A DNA stretch of 64,000 bases from Candidatus Bathyarchaeota archaeon (GTDB taxonomy: Archaea > Thermoproteota > Bathyarchaeia > Bathyarchaeales > Bathycorpusculaceae): positions 1,312,001 to 1,376,000 of the forward strand of contig OY970176.1 of NCBI GenBank assembly GCA_963707955.1, in the 5' to 3' direction. Below are positions 1-50,293 of this stretch, piece by piece. The position numbers were made by a program, and so were the translations under genes. The notes under the pieces were generated by a model that saw only the letters and a program-made list of their open reading frames with translations, made no database searches and was not told where the DNA came from. Position 1 is the first letter of the stretch; each line of letters begins with the position of its first letter.

Positions 1-82
1 CGGGCGAAATCAAATACAACGTGGCATGAAAAGCCGCAAAAACCCCGATGAACGCCACAGTTTTCGTCGACAAGGGCTTCAT
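1..82 (-). CDS. ECF-transporter S-component-like membrane protein, N-terminus (runs off window edge)
   Basis: Manual translation MKPLSTKTVAFIGVFAAFHATLYLISP resembles the typical S-component first TM helix. Confidence 0.55.
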   Translation of the reverse strand, partial: MKPLSTKTVAFIGVFAAFHATLYLISP

Positions 83-126
83 ATTTCAATCGAACGTAAT
101 TTTCTACATCAGCTAATATGCATTAT

Positions 127-197
127 GGGTTGCAATAGCTTAGCGCCAGACGAACCCACCTCCTGGGCTTGGGCGTAAGCCACAAAATGCGAGACCC
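127..197 (-). other. Long imperfect stem-loop upstream of the S-component gene (candidate structured leader or sRNA)
   Basis: Minus-strand pairings GGGT/ACCC, GCA/TGC, TGGCTTA/TAAGCTA, CGCC/GGCG, AGCCC/GGGTT; loop AGGAGGT. Confidence 0.45.
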
Positions 198-328
198 TGC
201 GTGCCAAAATAAGGTTTAATTAATTTAGGGACAAGCCAGCGTGCCTATACTATGAAAGCAGTTATATCAACCTTTATCATCTAAAAACTCCAACTGTTCG
301 CGCAATGGTAGGAGAACAAGCTGAGTAA

Positions 329-1801
329 TTGATAAAACTGAGAATAGACGTTGACTACCCCTATCCTTCAAGAAACAAGAGCTTCTTCTACACAGCGCTG
401 AGCATCAGACCAGACAAAGATTATCTGAAGAACTCGAAAATAATCGCAAGGATGATAAACGAATCACCGGAAGAAGTGGAAGCCACGTGGTTCTTCACTC
501 CAGCAACAACCCCGGACAGGGAGCTACTGAGCCTGCTGAACAACGATAGACACGAAGTTGCACTTCACATCGTCAACAACCCTTATTCTGAATGGAAGAA
601 TATGGAGAGAATGACAGGCAAAAAGATGCGTTATTACACCGTCCACGGAACAGAAAGGTTGCTCGCGAGAATCATGTGGAGACGGTGGACAACGAGATCA
701 CCAAGAATCCCGCAAGAATTCCCTCTAATCTCCTTCTATCAGTTTCCCACAAAACATCTGGACGCTATATGCTACTCCACTTCGACTGACAAAGCTGTAA
801 AGATCGCCCAAAACGCCATACGAGAAGGCCATGTCCTGCATTTCCACCCGATCTGGCTTTTTCAAAAAGGAAAGATTAACCACAGAGGGCCCTTCTACGA
901 CACGTTAAGAAAGATACTTGACGTGGACAAGGACGTTGAAGCAATAGCGTATCGCAAGAAAATCTTTTTCACAATAGCTAAAAACGCGGAAGAATATGAA
1001 AAAGATGTTGTTCCAACAGGCGAACTCGTCGCGAAGATGCGAGAAAGAGGAGCTGACGTGTTCACCTTCCTAGAGAGAGGGTGGGTCCGCACACTCTCAT
1101 GCTCAAAATCATGGGTCAAAGGAAGCGACAACATCGCACTTCTTCACGTAACAAGCTACGATGACTGGTGGAAAAGCATAGGGAAAAAAACCCGTAACGT
1201 GATTCGCAAGGCAGAAAAAAGCGGAGTGAAAACGAGAGTAGCCGAACCAGACGAGAAGCTAGCAGAAGGCATGTGGAAAATCTACAACGAAACCCCAATT
1301 AGACAGGACCGCGCGTTCCCACACTACGGTGAATCCCTGGATGCAATAACTAGAGGCTTGCACTCGACACGAAACGTCACATACGTAGGAGCCTTCTTGC
1401 AGGATGAACTTACAGGATTCATACAGCTAGTTCACGGTGACCGCATAGTCATAATCTCCCAGATACTTTCATTGCAAAAACACTGGGATAAGGCAGTGAG
1501 CAACGCTTTAGTAGCAAAGACGGTTGAAGTTTGCGCAAGCAAACATGAAGAATGGCTCATGTATGCACGCATGGGAAACCACCCTTCGCTGGACAAATTC
1601 AAACAGAGCAACGCCTTCGTCAAGTTCCCACTGACACGTTATTACGTGCCACTAACAGGAAGGGGCAGAGTGGCCCTAAGACTTGGGTTGCACGTAGAAA
1701 TGAAAGACGCTCTTCCGCAGAGAATAAAGTATCCGCTCATCCCATTTTACAACTGGATAAGCAGAACAAAAGTGAGAATCAGGCTTCGTTTGAAAACGTA
1801 G
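329..1801 (+). CDS. Polysaccharide deacetylase-like domain fused to FemAB/GNAT-like acyltransferase
   Basis: N-terminal LRIDVD, HEVALH, HFHP; C-terminal KKTRNVIRKAEKSGV and SLDKFKQ. Confidence 0.6.
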   Translation: MIKLRIDVDYPYPSRNKSFFYTALSIRPDKDYLKNSKIIARMINESPEEVEATWFFTPATTPDRELLSLLNNDRHEVALHIVNNPYSEWKNMERMTGKKMRYYTVHGTERLLARIMWRRWTTRSPRIPQEFPLISFYQFPTKHLDAICYSTSTDKAVKIAQNAIREGHVLHFHPIWLFQKGKINHRGPFYDTLRKILDVDKDVEAIAYRKKIFFTIAKNAEEYEKDVVPTGELVAKMRERGADVFTFLERGWVRTLSCSKSWVKGSDNIALLHVTSYDDWWKSIGKKTRNVIRKAEKSGVKTRVAEPDEKLAEGMWKIYNETPIRQDRAFPHYGESLDAITRGLHSTRNVTYVGAFLQDELTGFIQLVHGDRIVIISQILSLQKHWDKAVSNALVAKTVEVCASKHEEWLMYARMGNHPSLDKFKQSNAFVKFPLTRYYVPLTGRGRVALRLGLHVEMKDALPQRIKYPLIPFYNWISRTKVRIRLRLKT

Positions 1802-1977
1802 AACAGCACCTTAACGCGTACCCGAGGGTTTTGCTCGCTTCTGCCAAGTGTTATGGCGCAGCTTAGTCTCAGGCATACGATCGAAAAACTGATCCAAAAC
1901 GTGGGAATCATATTGCACTAGAACACAAAAAAATATACCCGTACACTGTTATGATCTGATTCGACAAGGGTGGCTTC

Positions 1978-3468
1978 TTGGCAAAGAAGGAAATAAGAGT
2001 TCAGTATTCAGGACTCATATTTTTCGGAGCCAAACTGATCAGTGTTGCCACAGGCATCCTCTTCACTCTACTGCTGGGTTCATTGTCGCAAGATAAGCTA
2101 GGAGCCTGGGGCATCCTTCTCAACATAATAGTCCCGTATTTCACGCTGTTGTCAGGAGCACTCTCATTCTGGACGATGCGCTTTGTCGCCAGAGACAAAG
2201 AAGGGGCAGCTAAAACGGGGATCGTGGCAAACATGACCATTGCGACAATAGCCACGCTCATCTACCTAGCGTTGCTGCCGTTGGTTACGCAAGCGTTTAG
2301 CCTACAAGATTACGTTATAGCATACATTCTAGTTGCAACACAAATAATCGAAACTTACATTATCACAGTCTTTGAAGCGTGTATGCAAGCTCAGCGACCA
2401 CAGTTCGTAGCTTACGGTTTGTTGATTGGAGAAGTGCTCAAAGTCGTCCTTGCTTACACTTTTGTAATAGCACTTCACTTGGACCTCGTGGGCATGATTC
2501 TCAGTCTTGCAATAGCATTCGCCGTCAAAATAGCATTCTATTTCAAGAATATGTTGATCGAACTTCGACAGAAGTTCGTCTTCAGCCACGTGAAAGAGTG
2601 GCTTAAAGGTTCAACGTTCAACTTATACAGCGCTATAGGTGACAGAATTGCCAGTGTCATATTCATCATGCTCAGCGTTTACGGCCAGAAGATCGGCGTG
2701 AGTTACTACACTGCAGCGCAACTAATCACGAATGTAATAGCGTACTCCGGCGCTGTGGCCTTTGCACTGTACCCGAAAATTCTGGCCGAGCGGAAAATGG
2801 ATGAGGTCACCTCCTCTCTAAGGATGGTCTTGATGTTCGCAATTCCTATGACTGTCGGAGTCCTCGCGATTCCTAACTCGTATCTCATCTTTTTCAATGT
2901 GCAGGGCACGTACGTAGTTGCCATGCCAGTCCTGATAATATTGGCGATCGACGCCCTGATCCAGACAAACGCAGGGTTCTTCACCAATATACTCTACGGA
3001 ATTGAGAGTGTGGACGAAGAAGCAAAGATACCTGTAGGGCAGCTCGTGAAAAGCAGGCTGTTCATATCCTTCTCTTTGCCTTACCTTCATTCAGCGATAA
3101 CTCTGCCGATAGCTTACTACGCTCTGACGCACTTCGCGAACAACGACCCGCTGCTAGTTGCAGTCTACGTCACTGGAATATTCATGATGGGACATCTGAT
3201 CTGTTTTCTAGTTTTGCTCGGTGTCTTGCATAAGGCCGTCAGGTTGAATATTCCATGGAAAAGCATTGTGAAGTACGTAGTTGCATCAGCGATTATGGCG
3301 CTAATTCTGATCGCAGGTCACCCAGTAGCGAGAATTTCAACACTCATATTCACTGGTGTTGGAGGATTGGCTTACCTATCATTGCTCGTTGCAATTGACA
3401 AAGAAACAAGAAACCTCGCAATAGTAATATGGGGAACATTGAAGACAAGATTCGGAAGAGGTTATTGA
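1978..3468 (+). CDS. Oligosaccharide flippase (MOP/Wzx-like)
   Basis: About 14 hydrophobic segments; paralog of 7226..8749 (IRVQYSGL, FALYPK, VLMFAIPM). Confidence 0.75.
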   Translation: MAKKEIRVQYSGLIFFGAKLISVATGILFTLLLGSLSQDKLGAWGILLNIIVPYFTLLSGALSFWTMRFVARDKEGAAKTGIVANMTIATIATLIYLALLPLVTQAFSLQDYVIAYILVATQIIETYIITVFEACMQAQRPQFVAYGLLIGEVLKVVLAYTFVIALHLDLVGMILSLAIAFAVKIAFYFKNMLIELRQKFVFSHVKEWLKGSTFNLYSAIGDRIASVIFIMLSVYGQKIGVSYYTAAQLITNVIAYSGAVAFALYPKILAERKMDEVTSSLRMVLMFAIPMTVGVLAIPNSYLIFFNVQGTYVVAMPVLIILAIDALIQTNAGFFTNILYGIESVDEEAKIPVGQLVKSRLFISFSLPYLHSAITLPIAYYALTHFANNDPLLVAVYVTGIFMMGHLICFLVLLGVLHKAVRLNIPWKSIVKYVVASAIMALILIAGHPVARISTLIFTGVGGLAYLSLLVAIDKETRNLAIVIWGTLKTRFGRGY

Positions 3469-3582
3469 CACAACGCGCCAAGCAATGCTAAAAATGGCGC
3501 GTCCTCAACCTCTTGATTGAAACAGTTCTTCGTCGCCTCAGAAATTGGTCCTGAAACGTGTCTAATTCTCCAAGAAGAGTCA

Positions 3583-3852
3583 CTAGGCCAACAGCTCAGA
3601 AAGAAGGGCGTTCAGTTCGTCTTTGTCTCTGAGACCCCTGAAAATGGCTTTGCCACTTCCGTAAAGTCGAAAAGAAAAATCCCTGTAGGTCAGTTCGGAA
3701 ACTATTCCAGCGATAGACTTCTTTGTAACGGCTTTTTTCAGAATCTTCTTGACAACTTCTTCTCTCTTATCGTATTTGAAGATCACAATAACATCTTTCT
3801 CTTTGCCGCATGTCCCTTCAACCCTGACCACGTAGTCTTCTAATCTGACCAT
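3583..3852 (-). CDS. Small protein resembling the C-terminal domain of ThiF/MoeB-family proteins
   Basis: TCG and FRLYGSGKAIFRG motifs; TAATG overlap with sufS. Confidence 0.5.
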   Translation of the reverse strand: MVRLEDYVVRVEGTCGKEKDVIVIFKYDKREEVVKKILKKAVTKKSIAGIVSELTYRDFSFRLYGSGKAIFRGLRDKDELNALLSELLA

Positions 3853-5090
3853 TAGAACTGCTCGATCTCCTTCAGCACCTCAGTGAAACTGTCAATCTCT
3901 TCGCGAGTATTGTATATGTAGAAACTCGCCCTTGCTGAGGAACTCAGCTTAAACATCTCATGCAACGGTTGGGCACAGTGAAAACCGCTTCTTATCATTA
4001 TTCCATAATTGTCAAGGAACAAGGCAACATCGTGTGAGCTTAGACCATCCACGCCGAAGGGAATTATTCCACATCTAGCAGACGTGTCCTTGGTTCCGTA
4101 AACTTCAAGCCTCTTGCAACAATCTTGCATGCGAGGCAGGGCATACTCGGTCAACCTTTCCTCATGCTCTTTCACGTTATCCATGCCGACGCGTTTGAGG
4201 TATCTCACGGCTTCCATGAACCCAACCGCTCCACCGACGTTCGGTGTTCCAGCTTCAAACTTCCACGGCAAAACATTCCAAGTTATTGAACAACGCTTCG
4301 TCCTTTTGTCGAAGGAGACCTCCCGTATCATTGCGCCCCCGCCCTGGAAGGGCTCCAGCTCCTCAAGAATCTCACGCTTTCCATACAGGACTCCTATGCC
4401 CGTTGGTCCTAACATCTTATGGCCCGAAAAAGCAAGAAAATCCGCGTCGAGATCCTTAACGTTCACCGGCATGTGCGGAACAGATTGAGCTCCGTCCACC
4501 AACATCAGGGCTCCGTGTTCATGCGCTGTTCTCGCAACTCTCTTCACGTTGTTGATTGTTCCTGTGACGTTTGAGACGTGAGAAAGGCAAACCATCTTGG
4601 TCTTCTTAGAGATCACTTTTTCAAAAGAGTCGTAGTTCAGGGTTCCGTCTCTGTTCACTCCGACGTATTTGATTTTGTAACCCCTAATCTTCGAGATTAT
4701 TTCCCAGGGAACTATGTTGCTGTGGTGCTCCATCAGCGACAGGACAACTTCGTCGTCCTCTTTTAGGTTGCGAAGTCCCCAAGCGTAGGCAACCAGGTTT
4801 ATGGCCTCAGTTGTGCCTCTGACGAAGATTATCTCTTCCATCCCTCTTGCGTTTATGAACTTGGCAACTTCTTCGTGAGCGCTCTCATAGAGTTCCGAAG
4901 CCTCTTGAGAGAGCGTGTACACAGCCCTGTGAACGTTTGCGTTGTGGTTTTCATAGAAATCTTTGATGGCGTCGATCACTTGTCTCGGTTTCTGTGTGGT
5001 CGCTGCGTTGTCGAAGTAGATCAAGGGGTGATTGTTTATCTTCCGTTTCAAAATCGGGAAATCCTTCCGAATACTGTAGGGGTCTAACAT
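3852..5090 (-). CDS. sufS: Cysteine desulfurase, SufS/group II
   Basis: YFDNAATTQKP, MEHHSN, DGAQS, FSGHKM, RSGFHCAQP. Confidence 0.95.
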   Translation of the reverse strand: MLDPYSIRKDFPILKRKINNHPLIYFDNAATTQKPRQVIDAIKDFYENHNANVHRAVYTLSQEASELYESAHEEVAKFINARGMEEIIFVRGTTEAINLVAYAWGLRNLKEDDEVVLSLMEHHSNIVPWEIISKIRGYKIKYVGVNRDGTLNYDSFEKVISKKTKMVCLSHVSNVTGTINNVKRVARTAHEHGALMLVDGAQSVPHMPVNVKDLDADFLAFSGHKMLGPTGIGVLYGKREILEELEPFQGGGAMIREVSFDKRTKRCSITWNVLPWKFEAGTPNVGGAVGFMEAVRYLKRVGMDNVKEHEERLTEYALPRMQDCCKRLEVYGTKDTSARCGIIPFGVDGLSSHDVALFLDNYGIMIRSGFHCAQPLHEMFKLSSSARASFYIYNTREEIDSFTEVLKEIEQF

Positions 5091-5590
5091 TATTTTCCTT
5101 CTGCCGCTTTCATCCTTTTCTCAAGCATCTTTGCTAGTTGTTCCTCTTCCAAAGCCTGTTTCTCTTCGAAGCTCGGCTCTTTCTGCAACCAGCTGGGAGA
5201 AGCCCCTATCTTTTCAAAGTACTTTCTTAACGCTCTCTTCAGTGCTCCCACGGCTAAGATGCCGCAGTGAAATTTGACGGTTGGCAACCCGCCCACGGCT
5301 TCTGCCACGCTCTTGTAGGATACTTTCCACGCGTCTTCAAGCTTCATGCCTTTTACCATCTCAGTTACTATGCTTGACGTGGCTATGTTCGCGGCGCAGC
5401 CATAACTCTCAAACGATGCCTTCTCAATGACGCCTGCGTCGCTGATCTTCAGGTAGAAGGTTATCATGTCTCCACACATGGGGTTTCCCGCGACGGCCGA
5501 TATGCTGGCGTCCTCCATTTTCCCGAGGTTCTTCGGGTTCCTGAACAACTCTAATATTTTTGGGTTGTAGGGCAAGGGGGCACGGGACAA
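5090..5590 (-). CDS. iscU: Fe-S cluster scaffold IscU/NifU N-domain
   Basis: GNPMCGD, YGCA, KFHC. Confidence 0.9.
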   Translation of the reverse strand: MSRAPLPYNPKILELFRNPKNLGKMEDASISAVAGNPMCGDMITFYLKISDAGVIEKASFESYGCAANIATSSIVTEMVKGMKLEDAWKVSYKSVAEAVGGLPTVKFHCGILAVGALKRALRKYFEKIGASPSWLQKEPSFEEKQALEEEQLAKMLEKRMKAAEGK

Positions 5591-5592
5591 TG

Positions 5593-6816
5593 CTACTCCG
5601 CTCCTGTAGAACCGGTTATACCTCTTATTCGATCAACAGCCTTGGGAATTACTTCCAAGGCATAATTTATGTCTTCCTCGGTGTGAACCCTCGAAACCTT
5701 CATCAGTATACTGCCGTGAGCTTGGTCGAACTTTCTGCCTATCGCAACCAGAACATGGCTCGGCTGCAGCAGCCTTCTGGAGCAGGCGCTTCCGCTTGAA
5801 ACGTAGACGCCGCTGAGGCTGAGCTCTATCGTCAGAGCCTCTCCTTCGCATCTAAGGAAGCTTATGTTCGCGTTGTCAGGAGCCCGCCTCGCTCCGACGG
5901 GACCGTTAAGCTCAATGTCCACTATTCTGCTGGTTATTCCATCAACAAGCTTGTCCCGCAGCTTCTTTATTCTCCCAACGTTCTCTTCAAAATCTTGGAA
6001 AATAAGCTCAGACGCTTTCGTGAAACCGACGATCAAAGGCGTATTCTCTACCCCAGGCCAGAGCCTCTGCGTTCCTATCTGCCCTTCCAAGATTCTTTCC
6101 AATTCAACACCTTCCTTCACGTACAAGCAGCCCATTCCTCTCGGCCCCAAAATCTTGTAGCTGCTGACCGTTGCCATGTCAACGCCCAAGTCTTGCACGT
6201 CGAACGGCACCTTGCCATATGCGTCCGAAGCGTCCGTGTGAAAGACGGTTTCCTTGTTCTTGTCCTGAACTATCTCCACTGCCTCCTTTATCGGTTGAAC
6301 CGTGCCTATCTCATGGTTCACCGTCGACAAGCTCACGAGGGCAGTTTCGTGGTCGATGGCTTCGCTCAGTCTGTCAAGGTTCAAGAAGCCCTCACTGTCA
6401 ACCGGAATCTTCGTTGCCGTGAAACCGCTTTTCTGAAGCATCTCGACGACGTGCAAGACGTTTATGGGTTCGACCTCTGAAACCACGATCTTCCTAGCTT
6501 TTTCCCTGATCGCAAGAGCAGTTCCCATTATTGCCAAGTTGTTGGCTTCGGTTTCCCCCGGAGTGAAGTTTACTTCCTCCACGTTTTTGCACTTGAGGAA
6601 GGACGCTATCCTCTGAGACGATTCCATTATCGCTTCGAACGCTTCCCAGCCCGGCTTGTGCGTCAAAGTGGGGTTTCCATAGGCAAGTCGACTGTAATAA
6701 GGCAACATCGCGTCAACGACATCTGTTGGGACGGCGCTTGAATTCTCGATGTCCAGATACACTTCACGTTTCACTCGCTCGTGCGCCTTCAACAGTTCCT
6801 TAACGTTTTCAACCAT
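5593..6816 (-). CDS. iscS: Cysteine desulfurase, IscS/NifS group I (atypical PLP pocket)
   Basis: TEANN, NHEIG, SSYKILGP, SSGSAC. Confidence 0.85.
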   Translation of the reverse strand: MVENVKELLKAHERVKREVYLDIENSSAVPTDVVDAMLPYYSRLAYGNPTLTHKPGWEAFEAIMESSQRIASFLKCKNVEEVNFTPGETEANNLAIMGTALAIREKARKIVVSEVEPINVLHVVEMLQKSGFTATKIPVDSEGFLNLDRLSEAIDHETALVSLSTVNHEIGTVQPIKEAVEIVQDKNKETVFHTDASDAYGKVPFDVQDLGVDMATVSSYKILGPRGMGCLYVKEGVELERILEGQIGTQRLWPGVENTPLIVGFTKASELIFQDFEENVGRIKKLRDKLVDGITSRIVDIELNGPVGARRAPDNANISFLRCEGEALTIELSLSGVYVSSGSACSRRLLQPSHVLVAIGRKFDQAHGSILMKVSRVHTEEDINYALEVIPKAVDRIRGITGSTGAE

Positions 6817-6861
6817 ACGCTGCTCAGCTCTTCCTTCTTGATCGCCTTCTACTATTCACTG

Positions 6862-6919
6862 TTTCTGATAGAAAAGCGTAACCCAGAAGAGAAATCGTTC
6901 CCGCACTCAACGCGTTAAA
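6862..6919 (+). repeat. Direct repeat, left boundary of glycan island
   Basis: TTTCTGATAGAAAAGCGTAACCCAGAAGAGAAATCG...CAACGCGTTAAA matches 20232-20288. Confidence 0.85.
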
Positions 6920-7225
6920 ACGTGCGCTAATCATGAATCTTAAAGAGAGAACACACAGCTACACGCAATAGAAAGAACACGACTATTTAGTGAGCGAGGA
7001 TTAGATAAGCACTATTCTGGAACAATTGTACTTTACGAATCCTAAAAATGAGAACTACAACGAGTTTCACGCTATTTGCTTAAGGTTAAGGCTTTGTCTA
7101 AACTTTCTCTTATTAGAGCGCGCGAAAAACGGTTTTTAAGGATCCTTCATTCAGTTCAAGATATTAAAGAGGAAACAATAACTCGTGTGGGAAAACGGAA
7201 ACAGCGCGTGCTAAAGGGACGACGT

Positions 7226-43003: not shown

Positions 43004-43083
43004 TGGCGGGCCCGCAGGGATTTGAACCCTGGATCTCCGGCTCCGCAGGCCAGCGTCCTAATCCAGACCTAGACCACGGGCCC
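43004..43083 (-). tRNA. tRNA-Arg(GCG)
   Basis: GGGCCCG...CTGGC CT GCG GA GCCGG...GGTTCAAATCC...CGGGCCCGCCA. Confidence 0.95.
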
Positions 43084-43311
43084 ATATGACTGGATTACGG
43101 TGTTCTGACTATTGCCTAGGTAAGATATTAACAACTCTAATAAAACTTAAGAACAGAGGCTTAGCTGAAGGCACACAGTCTGGTTGCTTCTGCTTCTCCT
43201 AGGTATGCTACGGTATTGAAGGTTCTTGCAGAAACAGGGGTTATGCCTCATGAACTGTCCAATGTTTCAATCAGAGATATTGATGTGGAAAGGGGAGTAA
43301 TGAATGTTAGC
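43084..43311 (+). pseudogene. Degraded tyrosine integrase (part downstream of att)
   Basis: GKILTTLIKLKNRGLAEGT, then after a deletion or frameshift YATVLKVLAETGVMPHELSNVSIRDID (box I-like); truncated. Confidence 0.7.
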
Positions 43312-43625
43312 GCGCGCGAGAGCAGAATTGAGGATGCAAATGTAAGAAAAACAGACCACATTAGTCGAAATATGATATTGACCGTGTGGGTCAGAATGTT
43401 TTGTTGCATCTCGCTCGTCTCTCACTCCATCACTATTAGGAGACTCTTAAGTGTTTATTCTAGTAACACTGTATTGTCTCACAAGTCACTGTGCGGACAT
43501 TTATCAATCCTTTTCCAGAAAATCCATCAGGGTCATTTACAGACTACATGACTTTTTCTTTTTAAGCCTTATGAATATCCTTATTAGACCTCAAACAACA
43601 CAAGGCAAACTGGGGGTTCAAAACT

Positions 43626-44261
43626 ATGTCTAGAGACAATTCACATGGAGAATCGGCAACTCCAAGTAAGCATATTATCGTTGAAAATCACGTTGTTGGT
43701 ATTGAGAGTGTTAGTATCAAGACTCGTCATGAAATTTCTGTATTGGCTTATGATTTTGCCAAAAGTTCTGTTGAAGATTGTCGCAGATATCGAGAGTTTT
43801 GTGATAAAGCTAAAGATGTACAAGAAAAAATGGGACATCTTCTCAATGAAATGCAGAGTTCAGTGGCATGCTTTGTCTTTTGCGTAATTTGTCTAGAGGC
43901 ATACATAAACACGTATGCTGGTGATAGGCTTTCTGAATTAATATGGGAAAAACTTGAACTAAGATTACGCCTTGAGGACAAGTGGATAGTAGTTCCAGAA
44001 CTCGCTCTCAGAAAAACATTTGAAACTGACAAGGAACCTTATAAATCATTAAAATGGTTGGTTGACCAGAGGAATTTTATAGTCCATTACAAAGGCAAAT
44101 TCAGTGAACCTGAAATGAATGACCGACTAGGGACCGCTACTGACAGAATTTTTAATCAATTTACATTGGAGAAAGCAGAAAGAGCATTTCAGCTTGTAAA
44201 AGACATGATTAAGAGCGTGCACAGTTTCGATGACTCGAAGGCTCCCGATTGGTTAGCCTAG
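43626..44261 (+). CDS. HEPN-like protein
   Basis: LEAYIN helix and RNFIVH (RX4H). Confidence 0.55.
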   Translation: MSRDNSHGESATPSKHIIVENHVVGIESVSIKTRHEISVLAYDFAKSSVEDCRRYREFCDKAKDVQEKMGHLLNEMQSSVACFVFCVICLEAYINTYAGDRLSELIWEKLELRLRLEDKWIVVPELALRKTFETDKEPYKSLKWLVDQRNFIVHYKGKFSEPEMNDRLGTATDRIFNQFTLEKAERAFQLVKDMIKSVHSFDDSKAPDWLA

Positions 44262-44341
44262 CCTAAGCCATGCAGTACAGAAGTCTTAAATCAGGACAGT
44301 AGGTTGACGAAACACACGGTAGAAAAGTAGAAATCCTATCG

Positions 44342-44809
44342 ATGCATACAGCAGGTCACGGTAGTGTTGGCATGTCTCGTGATGTTATATATGCAAAATA
44401 CCAAAGAATAGTGATGAGTGGTTTCGGTTACGCTTGTCCGTTTTGTTACGAACGAGATAAACTGGTTTATGATATGGGCACCCCAAGTTACCTGACCTGC
44501 ACGGCATGTGGAGCACGATGGAATCTTCACTGGTTTTTCGGCAAATTGACAGGGGCGGTATTGGTACAGGACAGTATGAAGGGAATAGGAGCACATTTGC
44601 TCCATAAGAATTATCCAACAGATTTCTGGCGAAAGATGGGTCTTGAAGGTCGCAAGGACTTGCCTCCGCCTTCCACTGAAATGACGGCAGCCAAGGAAAA
44701 AGAGATAATAACACAAACAAAAGTCATCGTGAAGGTCAAATGTCCTTATTGTACCAATCTATATGACGAGACGCTCGACAGATGTCCGCACTGTGGTGGA
44801 AAAAGGTAA
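44342..44809 (+). CDS. Zinc-ribbon protein
   Basis: Four CxxC pairs; KEIIT..KVKCPYC...CPHCG tail. Confidence 0.7.
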   Translation: MHTAGHGSVGMSRDVIYAKYQRIVMSGFGYACPFCYERDKLVYDMGTPSYLTCTACGARWNLHWFFGKLTGAVLVQDSMKGIGAHLLHKNYPTDFWRKMGLEGRKDLPPPSTEMTAAKEKEIITQTKVIVKVKCPYCTNLYDETLDRCPHCGGKR

Positions 44810-44939
44810 CAGTCGAATAAGGTAAATCAACTTGCGACAGACTCTAGTCAAGCTGAAAGAGGAATAATAGAAAAATTAAATCGGCACAGCAACAGAAGAC
44901 GAACTGGGCACATGCATAGAATCAGAAAGAGAATCTTGA

Positions 44940-46109
44940 ATGAACCATAACTATGATGATGAGGAAAAGAATACTGAACCAGATGAAGAAGATTCAGAAG
45001 AACCAAGACCTGTTGATGCTGAAGTTGATAGAAGAAAACGTGTTGAAATGCTCCTCAAAGAGGAAGAAGAAATAGACAAAGGTCAACCATTCAGAACAAA
45101 AGAAAGGAAGCACAATAATGGAATGACCAGTGAAGGAGAATTTCATTTTAAAAAAGCAGAAGAATGGAAAGAGATACATAGGAAAAGAATGAAATGGAAA
45201 TGGGTTCTCGCAACTATTTTGATCTTGGCAACAATCATACTCGGTCTATTCGTCTTCTACTCGTATCCTAATCTCTTTTCGAATATAATTCCAAACCAGT
45301 CTACAACAAATTATACTCATGGAGAACTTGTAGACTATGCTTTGACTCTAATCAATTTGGACAGATCATCAAGAGGCTTATCAAATGTGAGCCTAAGTCC
45401 AATAGATTCGGGTCAAGTTCACGCTGATGATATGTTTAATCATGGGTTCTTTAGCCATTGGGGAACTGATGGGTCTAAACCTTACATGCGGTATACATGG
45501 GCAGGAGGAAAAGGGGCTGTCGAAGAGAACGTTGCAGCATATTTGCAGGGTAGTCCTTCAGATCTGAAGACAGCTCTGAAAGATTTGGAATTCAATATGA
45601 TGTTTAATGATTCGGCTTCGAACTGGGGACACAGGGATAACATTTTGAATTCATTTCATAACGAGGTAAGCATTGGCGTTTCTCACGGCAATAGCCAACT
45701 GTATTTCGTTGAGGATTTCATAGATGACTACATTAACTGGTCAACCTTCACATTCACTCAAAATCAAGTTACATTAATCGGAAGTCTAACCAAACAAGTG
45801 TCTCTGAGTCAAGTCAATATATTCTATGATAGTCTGCCATCTAACTTGACGGCGGGTCAGTTGGATAATTCTCCCCACATTGGTTCATATACGCAAGGAA
45901 CTTTCACTGGAATGGCTCTTCCCCCAAACTATCAATCTCAACAAGGCATAACTATAACAGCCCAAACTTGGGTGCAATCAGTCCTAACATTCCAGATAGA
46001 ATTCGATTTGTCTCAAGTGTTCAATACGTACGGAAAAGGTGTCTATACTTTATATCTTCAAACCACCAGTCAAGATTCTCTTACATCATATTCTATCTGG
46101 CATGAATGA
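44940..46109 (+). CDS. Membrane-anchored CAP (SCP/PR-1) domain protein
   Basis: TM helix; IN.DR, HADDM...FSHW, EENVA, GHRDNIL. Confidence 0.85.
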   Translation: MNHNYDDEEKNTEPDEEDSEEPRPVDAEVDRRKRVEMLLKEEEEIDKGQPFRTKERKHNNGMTSEGEFHFKKAEEWKEIHRKRMKWKWVLATILILATIILGLFVFYSYPNLFSNIIPNQSTTNYTHGELVDYALTLINLDRSSRGLSNVSLSPIDSGQVHADDMFNHGFFSHWGTDGSKPYMRYTWAGGKGAVEENVAAYLQGSPSDLKTALKDLEFNMMFNDSASNWGHRDNILNSFHNEVSIGVSHGNSQLYFVEDFIDDYINWSTFTFTQNQVTLIGSLTKQVSLSQVNIFYDSLPSNLTAGQLDNSPHIGSYTQGTFTGMALPPNYQSQQGITITAQTWVQSVLTFQIEFDLSQVFNTYGKGVYTLYLQTTSQDSLTSYSIWHE

Positions 46110-46119
46110 CCGTAATGGA

Positions 46120-46148
46120 GATTTCAGAGGGTCCATAGAAGTTTTTCA
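46120..46148 (+). repeat. Cassette-boundary repeat R1
   Basis: GATTTCAGAGGGTCCATAGAAGTTTTTCA. Confidence 0.9.
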
Positions 46149-46423
46149 ATTTTAATTTAAAGGAAACAAGGTCTCTTCTTCATTCTTAGTGTTTATCAGA
46201 ACAAATCTAAGATTCGTTCTCATAGGGAAGATGTTCTGTTTGTGACGACTGTTTGCTCATAGAACTTTGTTTCAAAAGACAAATAGCCTGAGAAGAGTAA
46301 AGATCCATACACATTCTAGGGGAAAAGGAAAGGTGGTACAACGGTAAAAAAGAAGGATTTGGTTCAATGTTTATATTTTTGGTTTTGCATATATTTCATT
46401 GTAAGAATTACAGAAGATAGTGA

Positions 46424-47662
46424 ATGATGAAAAGTTATGCTGTTTGTGCTTTCTTACTGTTTTCAATGTTAGCTCTGCTTATACCGCTAAACATAGTCAA
46501 AGTAGATGCTGGCCTCGAATCAGGTTTGACGTTAGACTCTGGAAGTTATCCAGCAAGTATGGTCTACGATAACAATACCAATTCAGTATGGATAGCTTTG
46601 CATTATGGATATCCTCCATGGAATTCTTCGATAGCAAACATTGACGTTGCAAGCAAATCCGTTATAGGAATATATCAGCTTCCATATTCTTTGGATTCTG
46701 GTACATGGGGACCTTTTGCAGAATATATAACAATGGATTCTAACGGAAATGTTTGGGTAGCACCTTCTGATTATTTGCACTGGATTATACCTGAAGTCTA
46801 TGTTTTTATGTTCAATGTATCATCTCAAAATTGGACAACAGTTTTGGTTGATAACACTTCTTTGTTTGGAATTGGAGACATAGCCTATACAAATGGATAC
46901 ATATGGGTTCTTGGCTACACAAATATATACAGAGTAAATTTCAACAATAACAATTCTGTGTTAAAGATACCATCACCATCAGGAATAACATTGTTAGACG
47001 GAAGTTTATGTGAAGACGGAACAAATCTTTGGATTAGCACTTCTAATAGTGGCTCTCTTTTAATGCTAAATACAACAGATAACTCTGTTAAAACAGTTCT
47101 AAACGGACTTAATAATCCAAGAGGTATGTGTGTTGACAACACTTTTCTGTACATTGCCGAACAAGGACAAAATGTTGGTGGCAGTGGCAATTTTTCTGGA
47201 AATACTATTACTGTTATGAACAAGATAGACTATGGTGTAACAACTATAACTTGTGAGAACTGTACAGGAGTACAAAATGTTGCAATAGATGAAAATGGTA
47301 GCTTATGGTGGACAGATACTTCGCCAAACGGAGAAGTTATGACACATGTCGGAGTTTTTAATGTTACATACACACTTTATGAATATGCATATTATGTGAT
47401 CTATGTTCCTAACCCTGGTGTTTGGGTTTCGTACACTGGTAGTGCTGGTATAAAATTCTACAACTTCAGTGGATTTATCCAAGGTGACGTGAACAAAGAC
47501 GGAAGAGTGAGCATGACTGACGTTGTTGATGTCTTGGGAGCATTTGGTGCAGTAAATGGAACTTCTAGATACAATCCAACCTATGACTTCGACAACAATA
47601 GCAGAATAGATATGTCAGACATAATGGTTGTTTTAAGACACTTTGGACAAGTATCAACGTAG
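46424..47662 (+). CDS. Secreted beta-propeller (Vgb/NHL-like) protein with C-terminal dockerin-like domain
   Basis: Signal peptide; D..GN.W repeats; GDVNKDGRV...D, DFDNNSRID. Confidence 0.75.
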   Translation: MMKSYAVCAFLLFSMLALLIPLNIVKVDAGLESGLTLDSGSYPASMVYDNNTNSVWIALHYGYPPWNSSIANIDVASKSVIGIYQLPYSLDSGTWGPFAEYITMDSNGNVWVAPSDYLHWIIPEVYVFMFNVSSQNWTTVLVDNTSLFGIGDIAYTNGYIWVLGYTNIYRVNFNNNNSVLKIPSPSGITLLDGSLCEDGTNLWISTSNSGSLLMLNTTDNSVKTVLNGLNNPRGMCVDNTFLYIAEQGQNVGGSGNFSGNTITVMNKIDYGVTTITCENCTGVQNVAIDENGSLWWTDTSPNGEVMTHVGVFNVTYTLYEYAYYVIYVPNPGVWVSYTGSAGIKFYNFSGFIQGDVNKDGRVSMTDVVDVLGAFGAVNGTSRYNPTYDFDNNSRIDMSDIMVVLRHFGQVST

Positions 47663-47819
47663 TGAAAAACATCCAAAAATTCTCTTCTTTTTGTTGTTCT
47701 ATTTTTGCTCATAGGGCTAGTTCTTCAAGGAATAGCAGAGTTTGTAAGCTAAAGTTAGAGGAATATGATAAGGGTCTAGTTCTTTCACCAAGTTTAGGCT
47801 TTTCCCATCAATGAATGCA

Positions 47820-47857
47820 GATTTCAGAGGGTTCATAGAAGTTTTTCATCGAAGTTC
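47820..47857 (+). repeat. Cassette-boundary repeat R2
   Basis: GATTTCAGAGGGTTCATAGAAGTTTTTCATCGAAGTTC. Confidence 0.9.
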
Positions 47858-47994
47858 TTATGTTCACAGAAGATATTCAGTCAGCCAATCAGTACCTTTG
47901 AGCTTCTTGGAACATTTCTGCTTTCTAAAATGAAAAAGGATACATGCATAAGCTATAAGAACAACAGAAAAGGCAGTAATTTAGGGAGACGGAG

Positions 47995-49020
47995 ATGGCT
48001 AGAGGGTATCTTTTTTCTATAGCTCTGATTTGTGTGCTAGTTTTGTTATCTCCTTGTCTTTTGAAGAAAGCTTATGCTACTGACGGTTTTCCAGTACACA
48101 ATATCAGCACAGACTTGAACTATGCAACAATACAATCAGCAATCAATGCTATCCAGACAGTAGATGGAAATACGATTAGAGTTGATGCTGGAACCTATAA
48201 CGAGACATTGACAATTGATAAGGGCGTTTCCGTAATTGGAGACAGCCCCAGTACTACAACAATCAATGGGCAGGTCACTATAATTTCTTCAGGAGTAGAA
48301 ATCTTCAATTTCACCTTGAATGGTGGAATTAAAATATTCTCTTCTTACTATGCAACTTCACGCTGCACTGTTTCTAATAACACAATAGTTGGAGTTCCAA
48401 ACATAGGGGATGGATACGGGATTCATGTCTACACCAATGAAGCTGGATTTGCAGATTATGGCATTATTGAAAACAATGAGATAAGAGATTTTAACTATAC
48501 TGGCATATCGATTTATCGTGTTAGTGGTTGGACAATTTCAGGAAATGACATACACGACAATCTAAGAGGCGGTATATATCTTGGAGATGGAGAATCGTGT
48601 AATATCATTGGAAACTCAATCCATAATGACAATTCAATTTATCCATATACCTTCTTTGCATTAGAACTTGAATATTCAAGCAATAATGTGATATATTATA
48701 ACGATTTTTTTGATAATGGCAAGTTTTCTCAAGTATATGTATCAAATGGCTATTCCAACAAATGGGATAGCGGAAGTCAAGGCAATTATTGGGATGATTA
48801 TAAAGGAGTAGATAGTGGTAATGGGATTGGAAGCACTCCGTATTTAATTGACTCTTATAACCAAGATAATTTTCCACTCATGCACACGTACAACATTCCA
48901 GAGTTCCCATCATTCATTGTCCTAACAATATCCATGTTAGTAACACTACTAGCAGTCATAGTCTACTTGAAACTCATCAAGCAAAGATTTCAAGGACTCC
49001 ATAGAAGTTTTTCATCGTAG
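47995..49020 (+). CDS. Secreted beta-helix (NosD/pectin-lyase-like) protein with PEF-CTERM anchor
   Basis: YATIQSAIN, GTYNE, GNYWDDY.G.D..GIG..PY, IPEFPS plus TM helix. Confidence 0.8.
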   Translation: MARGYLFSIALICVLVLLSPCLLKKAYATDGFPVHNISTDLNYATIQSAINAIQTVDGNTIRVDAGTYNETLTIDKGVSVIGDSPSTTTINGQVTIISSGVEIFNFTLNGGIKIFSSYYATSRCTVSNNTIVGVPNIGDGYGIHVYTNEAGFADYGIIENNEIRDFNYTGISIYRVSGWTISGNDIHDNLRGGIYLGDGESCNIIGNSIHNDNSIYPYTFFALELEYSSNNVIYYNDFFDNGKFSQVYVSNGYSNKWDSGSQGNYWDDYKGVDSGNGIGSTPYLIDSYNQDNFPLMHTYNIPEFPSFIVLTISMLVTLLAVIVYLKLIKQRFQGLHRSFSS

Positions 49021-49023
49021 TTC
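48986..49023 (+). repeat. Cassette-boundary repeat R3
   Basis: GATTTCAAGGACTCCATAGAAGTTTTTCATCGTAGTTC; supplies the stop codon of 47995..49020. Confidence 0.85.
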
Positions 49024-49127
49024 TGTCTGTTATTAACATATACAGCTATTATTGAGCTTCTTTTCTATCCAATATTCTCTTCATGATGTAGTCTTTAATA
49101 CTAATTCTACTAGATTTGATTTCTTGA

Positions 49128-49616
49128 GTGACTCAGATGTTGGACATACCGTCTATTTCAGCAATTGTTGTAGCCACAGGCGTACTGGTTGGTGTTGTTT
49201 ATTATATTCTGGATATGAGAAATCAGAGCAAAGTGAGACAAACAGACCTTGTAATGAGACTATACTCAACTTTCAATAGTCTTGAATTCCAGAAGACATG
49301 GGAAGAGGTTTTGAAAAGAGAAGCCAAGAACCTCAATGATTACGAGAAAAAGTATAGTCAGGCTGAGGTATTAGCAATTGGCATGTTCTTCGAAGGAATC
49401 GGCATTCTTCTAAAAAGAAAACTCATAGACATAGAGTTAGTTGATGACATGTTCACTATGCCTATCAAAACAACATGGGAAAAGATGAGGGATATTACAT
49501 TAGAAGCCAGAAAAGTCAGAAATGAACCAACGGGTCTTGAGTGGTTCGAATATCTCTACGATGAAATGAAGAAGAGAGAACAGAAGCTCCGACAAGGAAG
49601 TTTCAAGAATGGTTGA
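49128..49616 (+). CDS. DUF4760-like single-TM protein
   Basis: N-terminal TM; FFEGIGIL, WEK, WFEYLYDEMKK. Confidence 0.6.
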   Translation: MTQMLDIPSISAIVVATGVLVGVVYYILDMRNQSKVRQTDLVMRLYSTFNSLEFQKTWEEVLKREAKNLNDYEKKYSQAEVLAIGMFFEGIGILLKRKLIDIELVDDMFTMPIKTTWEKMRDITLEARKVRNEPTGLEWFEYLYDEMKKREQKLRQGSFKNG

Positions 49617-50062
49617 CATAACAGAGATTTCGGCTATTGTTGCAGCAGCAGGTGTGTTAGTAGGTGTTATCCTTACTGTGCTAGAGCTTAGACATCTAGC
49701 CAGATCAAGACGAACAGACTCCTATTGGAGGATTATGTCCAGCTTCAACAGCAAAGAATACTTGGAAGCATTACAGAAAGTGCTTAGTCTGGAATTCGAG
49801 GACTACGATGACTTCACAAGAAAATATGGTAACTTGCTTTCAGGAAAATGAAGTTGGCGTACCATTCGCCATGGTTTGCGATCTGTATGAAACAACAGGC
49901 TTTCTTCTTCATAATGGACTACTGGAATATGACATAGCCAGCCAATTCCCAGTCATCCAAACATGGGAGAGAGTGAAGCCGATAGTAGAAGGATTAAGAA
50001 AGGAATCCACCAAATCGTATTACAAGTGGTTTGAATACCTATACAATGAGATGAAGAAATGA
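49609..50062 (+). CDS. DUF4760-like paralog, frameshifted at ~49843
   Basis: The two frames together align end-to-end with 49128..49616. Confidence 0.6.
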
Positions 50063-50085
50063 GAGCAAACACAGATTCAGCCAAG

Positions 50086-50123
50086 GATTTCAGAGGGTCT
50101 GTAGAAGTTTTTCAGCGAAGTTT
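50086..50123 (+). repeat. Cassette-boundary repeat R4
   Basis: GATTTCAGAGGGTCTGTAGAAGTTTTTCAGCGAAGTTT. Confidence 0.9.
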
Positions 50124-50211
50124 CGAGATTTCAAGCTTAGAGTGATCAATCACAAACCATTTAAGATTCTTCAAAGTAGTATAGAAGTGCAAAATGGGGA
50201 GATAAAGAAGA

Positions 50212-50293
50212 ATGGACAATGAAAACAATCCTTTTGAACAGAAAGCAATCAATAATAAGTCTGACGTCCTAATCCAGCCTAGACCACGGGCCC
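50212..50293 (+). other. Putative intN fragment ending in the att repeat (50265-50293)
   Basis: MDNENNPFEQKAINNKSDVLIQPRPRA; in frame with 43084 onward after excision. Confidence 0.6.

Follow-up and report, generated by a model that had tools for sequence, protein, structure and literature searches.

The window analysed here, a 64,000-nucleotide stretch of the genome of a Candidatus Bathyarchaeota archaeon (GenBank assembly GCA_963707955.1, contig OY970176.1, positions 1,312,001 to 1,376,000), contains an island integrated at a tRNA gene in which four copies of a short repeated site, here called R, each follow a different unit. We found R to be an oriented junction element, restricted to one lineage, where the units of a family of tRNA-integrating islands reassort. 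Moreover, the sequence comparisons give about an even chance that R serves site-specific recombination, probably as a substrate of the islands' own integrase, a recombinase of the SSV type (Pfam PF16795), in an integron-like cassette system composed of different parts. An initial annotation of the window had taken the repeats for the recombination sites of an undescribed archaeal cassette capture system; R does bound swappable cassette-like units, as that annotation supposed, and site-specific recombination is what we infer from them.

The four same-strand repeats of the initial annotation are real and were all recovered by pattern, repeat search and hidden Markov model (HMM). Its search pattern, with up to three mismatches allowed, returned the copies at 46120, 47820 and 50086 on the plus strand (0.00 expected from 100 shuffles); the fourth, at 48977-49022, came from a repeat search that defined a family (D1) of four copies at spacings of 1700, 1166 and 1100 nucleotides, and the HMM finds all four with E values of 1e-10 to 2e-16. 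In an alignment of 143 distinct copies the conserved unit is ~45 nucleotides long, more than the 29-38 bp first given for it. Open reading frame (ORF) coordinates bear out the claimed position of each copy behind its gene:

46115-46162, plus strand: R1, whose right half diverges past T5-CA; starts 11 nucleotides after the stop of the CAP ORF (46109).
47815-47862, plus strand: R2; starts 158 nucleotides after the stop of the propeller/dockerin ORF (47662).
48981-49028, plus strand: R3; overlaps the end of the beta-helix ORF and gives its TAG at 49018-49020.
50081-50128, plus strand: R4, the last site; starts 24 nucleotides after the stop of the final DUF4760 ORF (50062).

A degenerate core that had been placed near 46256 was undetected by the HMM even at E ≤ 50 with the island searched alone. 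R is composed of the left arm (A)AAGATTTCA, a variable stretch of nine nucleotides that is roughly palindromic (most commonly GGGAGTCCC), and then TAGAAGTTTTTCATCG(T/A)AGTTC. The left arm AAGATTTCA is conserved and the right part, TAGAAGTTTTTCATCGTAGTTC, is nearly invariant; the columns that lie outside the search pattern TCGTAGTTC still show a conservation of 73-97%.

The sequences on the two sides of R are not linked to each other. In a gapped comparison of the 200-nucleotide flanks on either side of a 48-nucleotide interval placed at R in 129 copies, 522 pairs had similar left flanks, 349 had similar right flanks and 24 had both, against 22.1 expected under independence, and the probability of a similar right flank given a similar left one was 0.046 vs 0.042. 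When this interval was shifted by 300 nucleotides into the upstream or the downstream unit, the corresponding counts were 71 vs 3.8 and 117 vs 5.3 expected. Flanks that are at least 88% identical are accompanied by an unrelated sequence on the other side in 12 of 19 cases when the left flank is shared and in 15 of 21 when the right one is; both sides were alike in 6. Indeed, homology breakpoints map to R, as the cassette reading of the initial annotation called for: where matches with an identity of 90% or more end internally, they do so within 15 nucleotides of R in 23 of 108 cases, a zone making up ~2% of the sequence.

In the 27 discordant pairs, columns 41-48 of R track the right flank and the centre mostly tracks the left flank, which places the switch point in the invariant core. 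The homology breakpoints lie in this core around CTAGAAGTTT, including those at junctions with sequence unlike R. Three contigs have in common a ~570-nucleotide left flank and the left half of R and then continue into three unrelated sequences after TAGAAGTT, and another contig pair diverges after TAGAAGTTT. Copies that retain only the left half of R break at columns 25-32 and copies that retain only the right half at about 19-25 (19-32 overall). Since the partners at these junctions share no homology with R, they point to breakage at a preferred place rather than to homologous exchange, and the scatter of the break positions over ~8 nucleotides would fit an overlap region.

Hybrid sites are found as well. 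The R of one locus (L050) combines the upstream unit of one site in another locus (L040) with the downstream unit of a second L040 site that lies 6.1 kb, or four units, away. In the window's own genome, the copy at 2138151 has an upstream flank like that of R2 (47757-47854) and a downstream flank like that of R4. A unit consisting of R, a winged-helix gene and R is shared by L045 and L046 (84% identity over 454 nucleotides) between unrelated flanks, and the tRNA-Val(gac) locus of the genome is syntenic in the same-genus genome G120, yet different units lie between the conserved R sites. Unit order and content likewise differ among the longer same-strand arrays of relatives and are not fixed.

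We found 62 R copies in 23 genomic sources, with up to seven copies to a locus and a single orientation in all 18 multi-copy loci, and 140 copies in 79 metagenomic loci, where 31 of the 32 multi-copy loci are uniform in orientation. Between neighbouring R copies there are 101 distinct intervals, with a median length of 850 nucleotides (range 76-7137); 49 of them hold one ORF of at least 50 residues and 10 hold none. All ORFs are co-oriented with R in 54 of these units, all are reversed in 21 and the orientations are mixed in 16 (139 of the 183 ORFs are co-oriented and 44 reversed), and the rule of one R orientation per array holds despite the 21 all-reversed and 16 mixed units. One recurrent unit is composed of R, 76-80 nucleotides, a GNAT gene (Acetyltransf_3), one to four DUF4760 genes and R, and a second of R, an AsnC-type helix-turn-helix (HTH) gene (family F2) and R. 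The cargo of the remaining kinds of unit includes a winged-helix protein, methyltransferases, a ZIP transporter, CBM96, GH99 and beta-helix proteins. There are also tandem R copies only 76-77 nucleotides apart with no gene between them (L070 352-475 and L088 6994-7117), and several further units of 345-490 nucleotides lack an ORF of at least 50 residues. With R copies spaced 76-7137 nucleotides apart and genes in the intervals, the earlier statement that R is not a CRISPR repeat holds, CRISPR spacers being 25-50 nucleotides long. We likewise rejected R as a CRISPR repeat or solitary repeat unit of this genome, whose two periodic repeats have sequences unrelated to R. An 18-mer occurring seven times at 45-110-nucleotide spacing near G000:C1 2287681, possibly a CRISPR array, is also unrelated to R.

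Some sites combine a normal left half of R with a variant right half that recurs among loci, of the types …TAGAAGT-CTAGAGTCA… and …TTTGTGACTTC… (L034 17408, L035 12399, L084 3501, L101 542; L043 9258, L046 7164, L076 1839, L126 4800). These alternative right halves may be variant sites or the products of recombination with a second kind of site. In L044 (7985-8080) and L046 (7860-8054), the HTH gene is followed, immediately ahead of R, by no more than the final ~20 codons of a membrane-anchor tail (…VIVYRKKHAK…). Full beta-helix genes, that of the window included, have this tail at their end, and its remnant suggests that most of a former unit was deleted.

R is confined to a narrow lineage. 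With a degenerate pattern and up to two mismatches, it was found in 18 of 201 genomes, belonging to 7 of the 70 genera of one Bathyarchaeia family, and the reversed control gave 0. The exact pattern, applied to one genome per species, returned 16 stretches, of which 14 are titled as Bathyarchaeia or Bathyarchaeota metagenome-assembled genomes; one of the other two has the island's GNAT gene beside R. The metagenome scan matched at least 120 stretches, and 80 of these were taken into the analysis. In IMG/VR the full R pattern had 0 matches and a 17-nucleotide R core had 9, approximately the number expected by chance by our own estimate, none of them with the left half of R or an island gene. 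An R-like stretch with an A+T-rich centre is common to L057 (5790-5825, on a contig binned as Saccharibacteria) and L079 (10919), with no island genes near it in either; it may be a matter of chance or a distant relative of R.

The window's four R sites belong to an insertion at tRNA-Arg(gcg), the features of which are:

43004-43083, minus strand: tRNA-Arg(gcg), the integration target of the island (ARAGORN; Rfam tRNA, 56.3 bits).
43054-43083: left attachment (att) direct repeat, from the 5' part of the tRNA; 30 nucleotides, 96.7% identical to 50265-50293.
43084-50264, plus strand: integrated island of ~7.2 kb bearing the four R copies; absent from relatives.
44940-46109, plus strand: gene of unit 1, CAP-domain protein (Pfam CAP, E 6.6e-4, marginal).
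46424-47662, plus strand: gene of unit 2, propeller repeats and a C-terminal dockerin (Dockerin_1 2.2e-6, Reg_prop 2.6e-5).
47995-49020, plus strand: gene of unit 3, secreted beta-helix protein (NosD-like) with a C-terminal membrane anchor (Pfam Beta_helix 1e-14).
49128-49616, and 49609-49851 with 49808-50062, plus strand: unit 4, an intact DUF4760 gene and a second one that is split (Pfam 8.8e-11, 8.5e-8).
50265-50293: right att direct repeat, a displaced copy of the tRNA-Arg 5' end.

In run X4, a contig from a related strain passes directly from 43053 to 50265 and skips 7211 nucleotides, the same-genus genome G198 has an empty site with the flanks 276 nucleotides apart, and G139 likewise lacks the island. 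The whole island is therefore an insertion, and as a whole it is mobile. Its att repeats are unrelated to R. R4 lies 137 nucleotides before the right att repeat; it is at this end that the arrays of related islands have their integrase. The cargo names first given (CAP, propeller/dockerin, beta-helix and DUF4760) stand under Pfam, that of CAP at its marginal E value of 6.6e-4, and every ORF of the window units is on the plus strand. A supposed tyrosine-recombinase remnant (ORF 43216-43551) did not survive scrutiny: it has no Pfam (E ≤ 1), PHROG or PADLOC match and no BLAST similarity to the integrases of related islands. The last ORF of the second DUF4760 gene (49609-50062) stops at a TGA where relatives continue into R (…KKREQ…); because the gene is split into overlapping ORFs and has this TGA where relatives read on, it looks decayed. 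For a 211-residue island ORF (43626-44261), Pfam gives no more than faint HEPN-like matches (E 0.011 and 0.08), which fall short of every threshold.

R arrays adjoin tRNA genes, and in intact islands a convergent SSV-type integrase gene lies 50-350 nucleotides past the last R. Of 62 arrays, 17 have an integrase gene no more than 1.5 kb past the last R (16 of the 17 convergent), whereas 1 of 65 has one before the first R. In five loci (L037, L043, L044, L045 and L047), the gene directly follows the last R, convergent with the array, and a 39-47-nucleotide tRNA copy lies at or in its 5' end, from which it follows that the chromosomal att of the integrase is the tRNA segment and not R. A PF16795 integrase with an att copy in its own 5' end occurs in these five and in L035; the window island has none. 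The minimal element, of 3.5 kb (L044), is composed of tRNA, GNAT, DUF4760, R, Lrp, R, integrase and att, and its integrase is a protein of 298 residues. We regard the window island as a decayed member of this tRNA-integrating SSV-type family because neither the island nor the genome encodes a PF16795 integrase. The co-occurrence with intact integrases suggested as a check in the initial annotation is thus seen in relatives, where they often adjoin arrays, and fails in this genome. A PHROGs scan of the island proteins matched integrase and acetyltransferase only, and a PADLOC defence scan gave nothing for DUF4760 or the GNATs and weak HTH matches only for families F2 and F5.

The genome, a single 2.35-Mb contig, holds seven R copies by HMM search, in three places, each of them next to a tRNA gene or an island. 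None of the copies comes after a housekeeping gene; the initial annotation had named the opposite outcome, genome-wide occurrence after such genes, as a refutation of its reading. This count and placement are unlike those of a dispersed REP or MITE repeat, which has many copies in both orientations. Three copies lie outside the window, two on the minus strand 1.77 kb apart (2136341-2138151) and one at 1301793. The pair is flanked by tRNA-Val(gac) and a second tRNA, and CAP and DUF4760 paralogs adjoin it. The paralog of the window's CAP gene (family F10) has 456 residues, the DUF4760 module of unit 4 is 69% identical in nucleotide sequence to the module there, with homology starting at the right edge of R3, and R3 itself is 95% identical over 41 nucleotides to the copy at 2136382.

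This second R-bearing island (G000:C1:2136003-2142674; L004 6005-12674) carries a zinc-ribbon-CAP fusion (456 residues), a GNAT-DUF4760-GNAT module and two R. Its far tRNA, of 111 nucleotides, was missed by ARAGORN and scores 46.7 bits with Rfam (an intron or a long arm), and just outside it, at L004 2015-5472, the gene of an 852-residue protein and its neighbours are inserted relative to the syntenic region of G120 (L050). The solitary R (G000:C1:1301793-1301829; L005 4793-4829) is 134 nucleotides from tRNA-Val(tac) and is followed by ordinary-looking genes; a scar is one possible explanation, a landing site another. In G126 (L047), a 7-kb island with two R and a split integrase occupies this chromosomal neighbourhood. 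Eight more paralogs of the island GNAT (53-72% identical) are found elsewhere in the genome without R or DUF4760, at G000:C1 ~209-214 kb, 1122 kb, 1441 kb, 2031-2032 kb and 2237 kb.

Under site-specific recombination, exchange between two direct R copies would excise a unit that carries one R, and exchange between such a free unit and a resident R would insert it. Most likely the integrase of the island itself would be the enzyme, with R as a further type of target besides att; its action on R is conjecture. The two arrays and the solitary R of the window's genome are orphans because no PF16795-type integrase is present. More broadly, and tentatively, at somewhat less than an even chance, Bathyarchaeia may possess an independently evolved capture platform, in which an SSV-family integrase, besides integrating at tRNA genes, recombines a dedicated site of 45 bp and thereby excises, inserts and reorders cassettes of single genes, often for surface, secreted or carbohydrate-binding proteins; carried on a mobile island, it would be a functional analogue of the integron with which it has no parts in common.

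A number of observations weigh against site-specific recombination at R by this integrase. The proven target of the integrase is a 30-47-nucleotide tRNA-derived att unrelated to R, and no such integrase is found anywhere in the window's genome, though R is present. The integrase family was found in 39 of the 201 genomes, many of them without R, in a single-query survey that misses divergent integrases known beside R (G017:C18, G017:C8, G139:C6, G102 and G126) and that, for this reason, neither supports nor refutes co-occurrence of R and integrase. Of the high-identity breakpoints, 85 of 108 are away from R, and in some pairs blocks are conserved across it (ZIP-R-GNAT and DUF4760-R-Lrp, the latter the HTH gene). 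The central nine nucleotides are variable, which would hinder a classical tyrosine-recombinase exchange if they were the overlap region. R lies at a fixed 76-80 nucleotides before the GNAT start in 8 of 10 loci examined, and the apparent conservation of its arms is inflated by a metagenome sample collected with the exact pattern. No cassette-level joint of R with R was seen in the assembled contigs of four runs of one study; rare forms are invisible in such contigs, and this negative speaks for neither side. No contig among the metagenome and genome-contig loci examined was circular. In the contigs of these runs, the joints 49199/49543 and 49589/48984 and the loose ends at 48984 and 49024 were traced to the genome's second island; a further joint, 49586/48985, and loose ends at ~47819-47858 probably represent R sites of other organisms.

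The main rival to site-specific recombination is a terminator-like element exchanged by homology, in which R would be mainly a transcription 3'-end element, an oligo-T terminator with an A-tract and a weak hairpin borne by all transcription units of the island family, and the units would be shuffled by homologous recombination over 40 bp of shared sequence; we consider it rather unlikely, though it accounts for part of the data. In its favour, 110 of 149 R copies lie within 160 nucleotides after a co-oriented ORF of at least 60 residues, with 26 supplying its stop codon, and the T5 run is present in 158 of 199 copies, traits that also count against a role in recombination. Among the 95 distinct copies outside the search pattern, however, only 54 keep the T5 run. 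Each window unit looks like its own transcription unit, TATA-like boxes being visible by eye between R and the next start codon, and the available part of PMC8371274 ascribes archaeal module exchange to homologous recombination of tandem elements. As to folding, consensus copies form an A-tract, stem and U-run hairpin (best z -2.6) whose G-U pairs favour the sense strand, whereas the folding of the four window copies does not exceed that of shuffles (z +0.05 to +1.42) and none of them qualifies in a hairpin-plus-T terminator scan. Such terminators are not enriched in the window (16 vs 16.1 expected, and 8 vs 13.6). Covariation of the hairpin was rejected in the 143 copies (score 0.113 vs 0.104, reached by 25 of 500 shuffles), the best covarying pair (GC 78, GT 22, AT 14, AC 24) showing only a weak association. 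The terminator that the initial annotation had offered as its alternative is thus weakened by the lack of a folding or scan signal in the window, and keeps the T5 run and the position after ORFs in its favour. Termination at T5 is insufficient alone because it leaves unexplained the constant array orientation beside reversed genes (21 of 101 units, 44 of 183 ORFs), the ~13 invariant bases past the T run and the restriction to islands, R following no gene outside them here. Furthermore, the left-half R junctions with non-homologous partners, at the same 1-2 nucleotides, are impossible by homologous exchange. The T5 run may also stop the transcription of each unit.

Tandem accretion, in which small elements integrated repeatedly at the same tRNA and later lost their integrases and att copies, R being a conserved internal feature (for example of regulation or replication), is improbable. 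The islands do lie at tRNA genes with att repeats, several arrays have two or three copies of the GNAT-DUF4760 module, a 3.5-kb minimal element exists in L044 and integrase fragments occur; however, the loci examined have only the outer att pair and no internal att between units, many units are of 340-570 nucleotides with one small gene and are too small for elements, and even the minimal element has two R. Chance-level linkage across R means that exchange at R, and not mere stacking, is needed. Decidedly improbable, too, is that R serves as an operator or insulator through which the island-encoded AsnC/Lrp-type HTH protein (F2) or the winged-helix protein (F5) controls each unit. The F2 gene usually lies next to the integrase with an R on each side, R has an imperfect palindrome in its left part such as dimeric HTH proteins bind, and R keeps its fixed 76-80 nucleotides from the GNAT starts; yet F2 is found in only 12 of the 79 metagenomic R loci and F5 in 3, both islands of this genome lack F2 and F5 (its eight F2-like genes are chromosomal paralogs, 32-46% identical), R is often at 3' ends, that of the convergent integrase included, and the lost linkage and the breakpoints in R would go unexplained. 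Finally, R is almost certainly not a divergent attC of a canonical integron, despite an array organisation resembling integron cassette arrays. The initial annotation had already set R apart from attC, and rightly so: the 143-copy consensus has neither a GTTRRRY nor a RYYYAAC core, and its 45 nucleotides form a weak stem of at most 13 pairs. Nor are the array-adjacent integrases IntI, since 0 of 5 match TIGR02249 and their best Pfam match is PF16795, and in the available part of Ghaly et al. 2022 (PMC9668308) the archaeal integrons have IntI and attC of the canonical kind.

Three further candidate identities were rejected. A coding role, as a conserved C-terminal peptide (KISGxP), does not hold, the variable columns falling on first and second codon positions and the upstream ORFs entering R in different frames or stopping short of it. 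R lacks the CCGAAA..CTTAAATA-type box seen in the genome's tRNA promoters and was rejected as a promoter, and as a known RNA family it was rejected with Rfam matches limited to tRNAs.

Integrons are the only well-understood prokaryotic means of stockpiling and reshuffling single genes. If R is recombined as proposed, a second, unrelated cassette system would exist and the strategy would have evolved more than once, SSV-family integrases would have a new kind of substrate, and the exchange of surface and glycan-related genes in abundant sediment archaea would be explained in part, the units including CAP, dockerin-propeller, beta-helix, CBM96, GH99, ZIP and methyltransferase proteins as well as the GNAT-DUF4760 module. 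With a short site of sharp limits and with intact arrays that have an integrase, the proposal lends itself to direct testing. Even conservatively, R is a newly recognised marker for the island family and for module boundaries in metagenomes; we found no description of it in the literature searched.

An attC site has RYYYAAC … GTTRRRY cores and is an imperfect palindrome of 57-141 nucleotides that folds as a single strand. R arrays resemble integrons in their short co-oriented sites, in units that are mostly single-gene and co-oriented, with a minority reversed or ORF-less, in the variation of unit order and content and in the tyrosine recombinase at one array end; integrase-less arrays occur, as in this genome. 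They differ in that R is a 45-bp, largely sequence-conserved site without attC cores or a long folded hairpin, and in that the recombinase is of the SSV type (PF16795), downstream and convergent, whereas the IntI of an integron is upstream and divergent. The platform, moreover, is a 3.5-8-kb tRNA-integrating element, the window units seem to own promoter-like boxes, and recombination of R arrays is what we infer from sequence. The available part of the report on archaeal integrons (Ghaly et al. 2022; PMC9668308) describes canonical IntI/attC systems.

Closer to the islands as a whole are the elements of SSV-family ('suicidal') integrases and other cryptic integrated archaeal elements, as described in the available parts of PMC8371274, PMC7253208 and PMC6563490. 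Archaeal tyrosine recombinases have tRNA targets and an att inside the integrase gene (PMC8371274, in the part available), and the R-bearing islands share with SSV-family elements the integration at a tRNA, the att copy in the 5' end of the integrase gene, the small size, the lack of viral hallmarks and a modular evolution. Those accounts, in the parts available, describe no internal repeated and oriented junction site, and module exchange is ascribed in the corresponding part of PMC8371274 to homologous recombination between tandem elements. The pTN3 integrase, a member of the same family, shows low-specificity recombination (Cossu et al. 2017, as cited in the available part of PMC8371274). 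That it recombines non-att sequences makes action on R conceivable; according to the same source, however, it needs at least 104 bp of identity and has no dedicated site, whereas R has 45 bp and some of its partners are non-homologous.

Intrinsic and oligo-T terminators, REP sequences and mycobacteriophage stoperators are short, oriented, conserved elements that follow genes. R has in common with them a T run and a weak palindrome; in contrast to them, it is confined to one island family, keeps its orientation beside reversed genes and marks the points at which units are exchanged.

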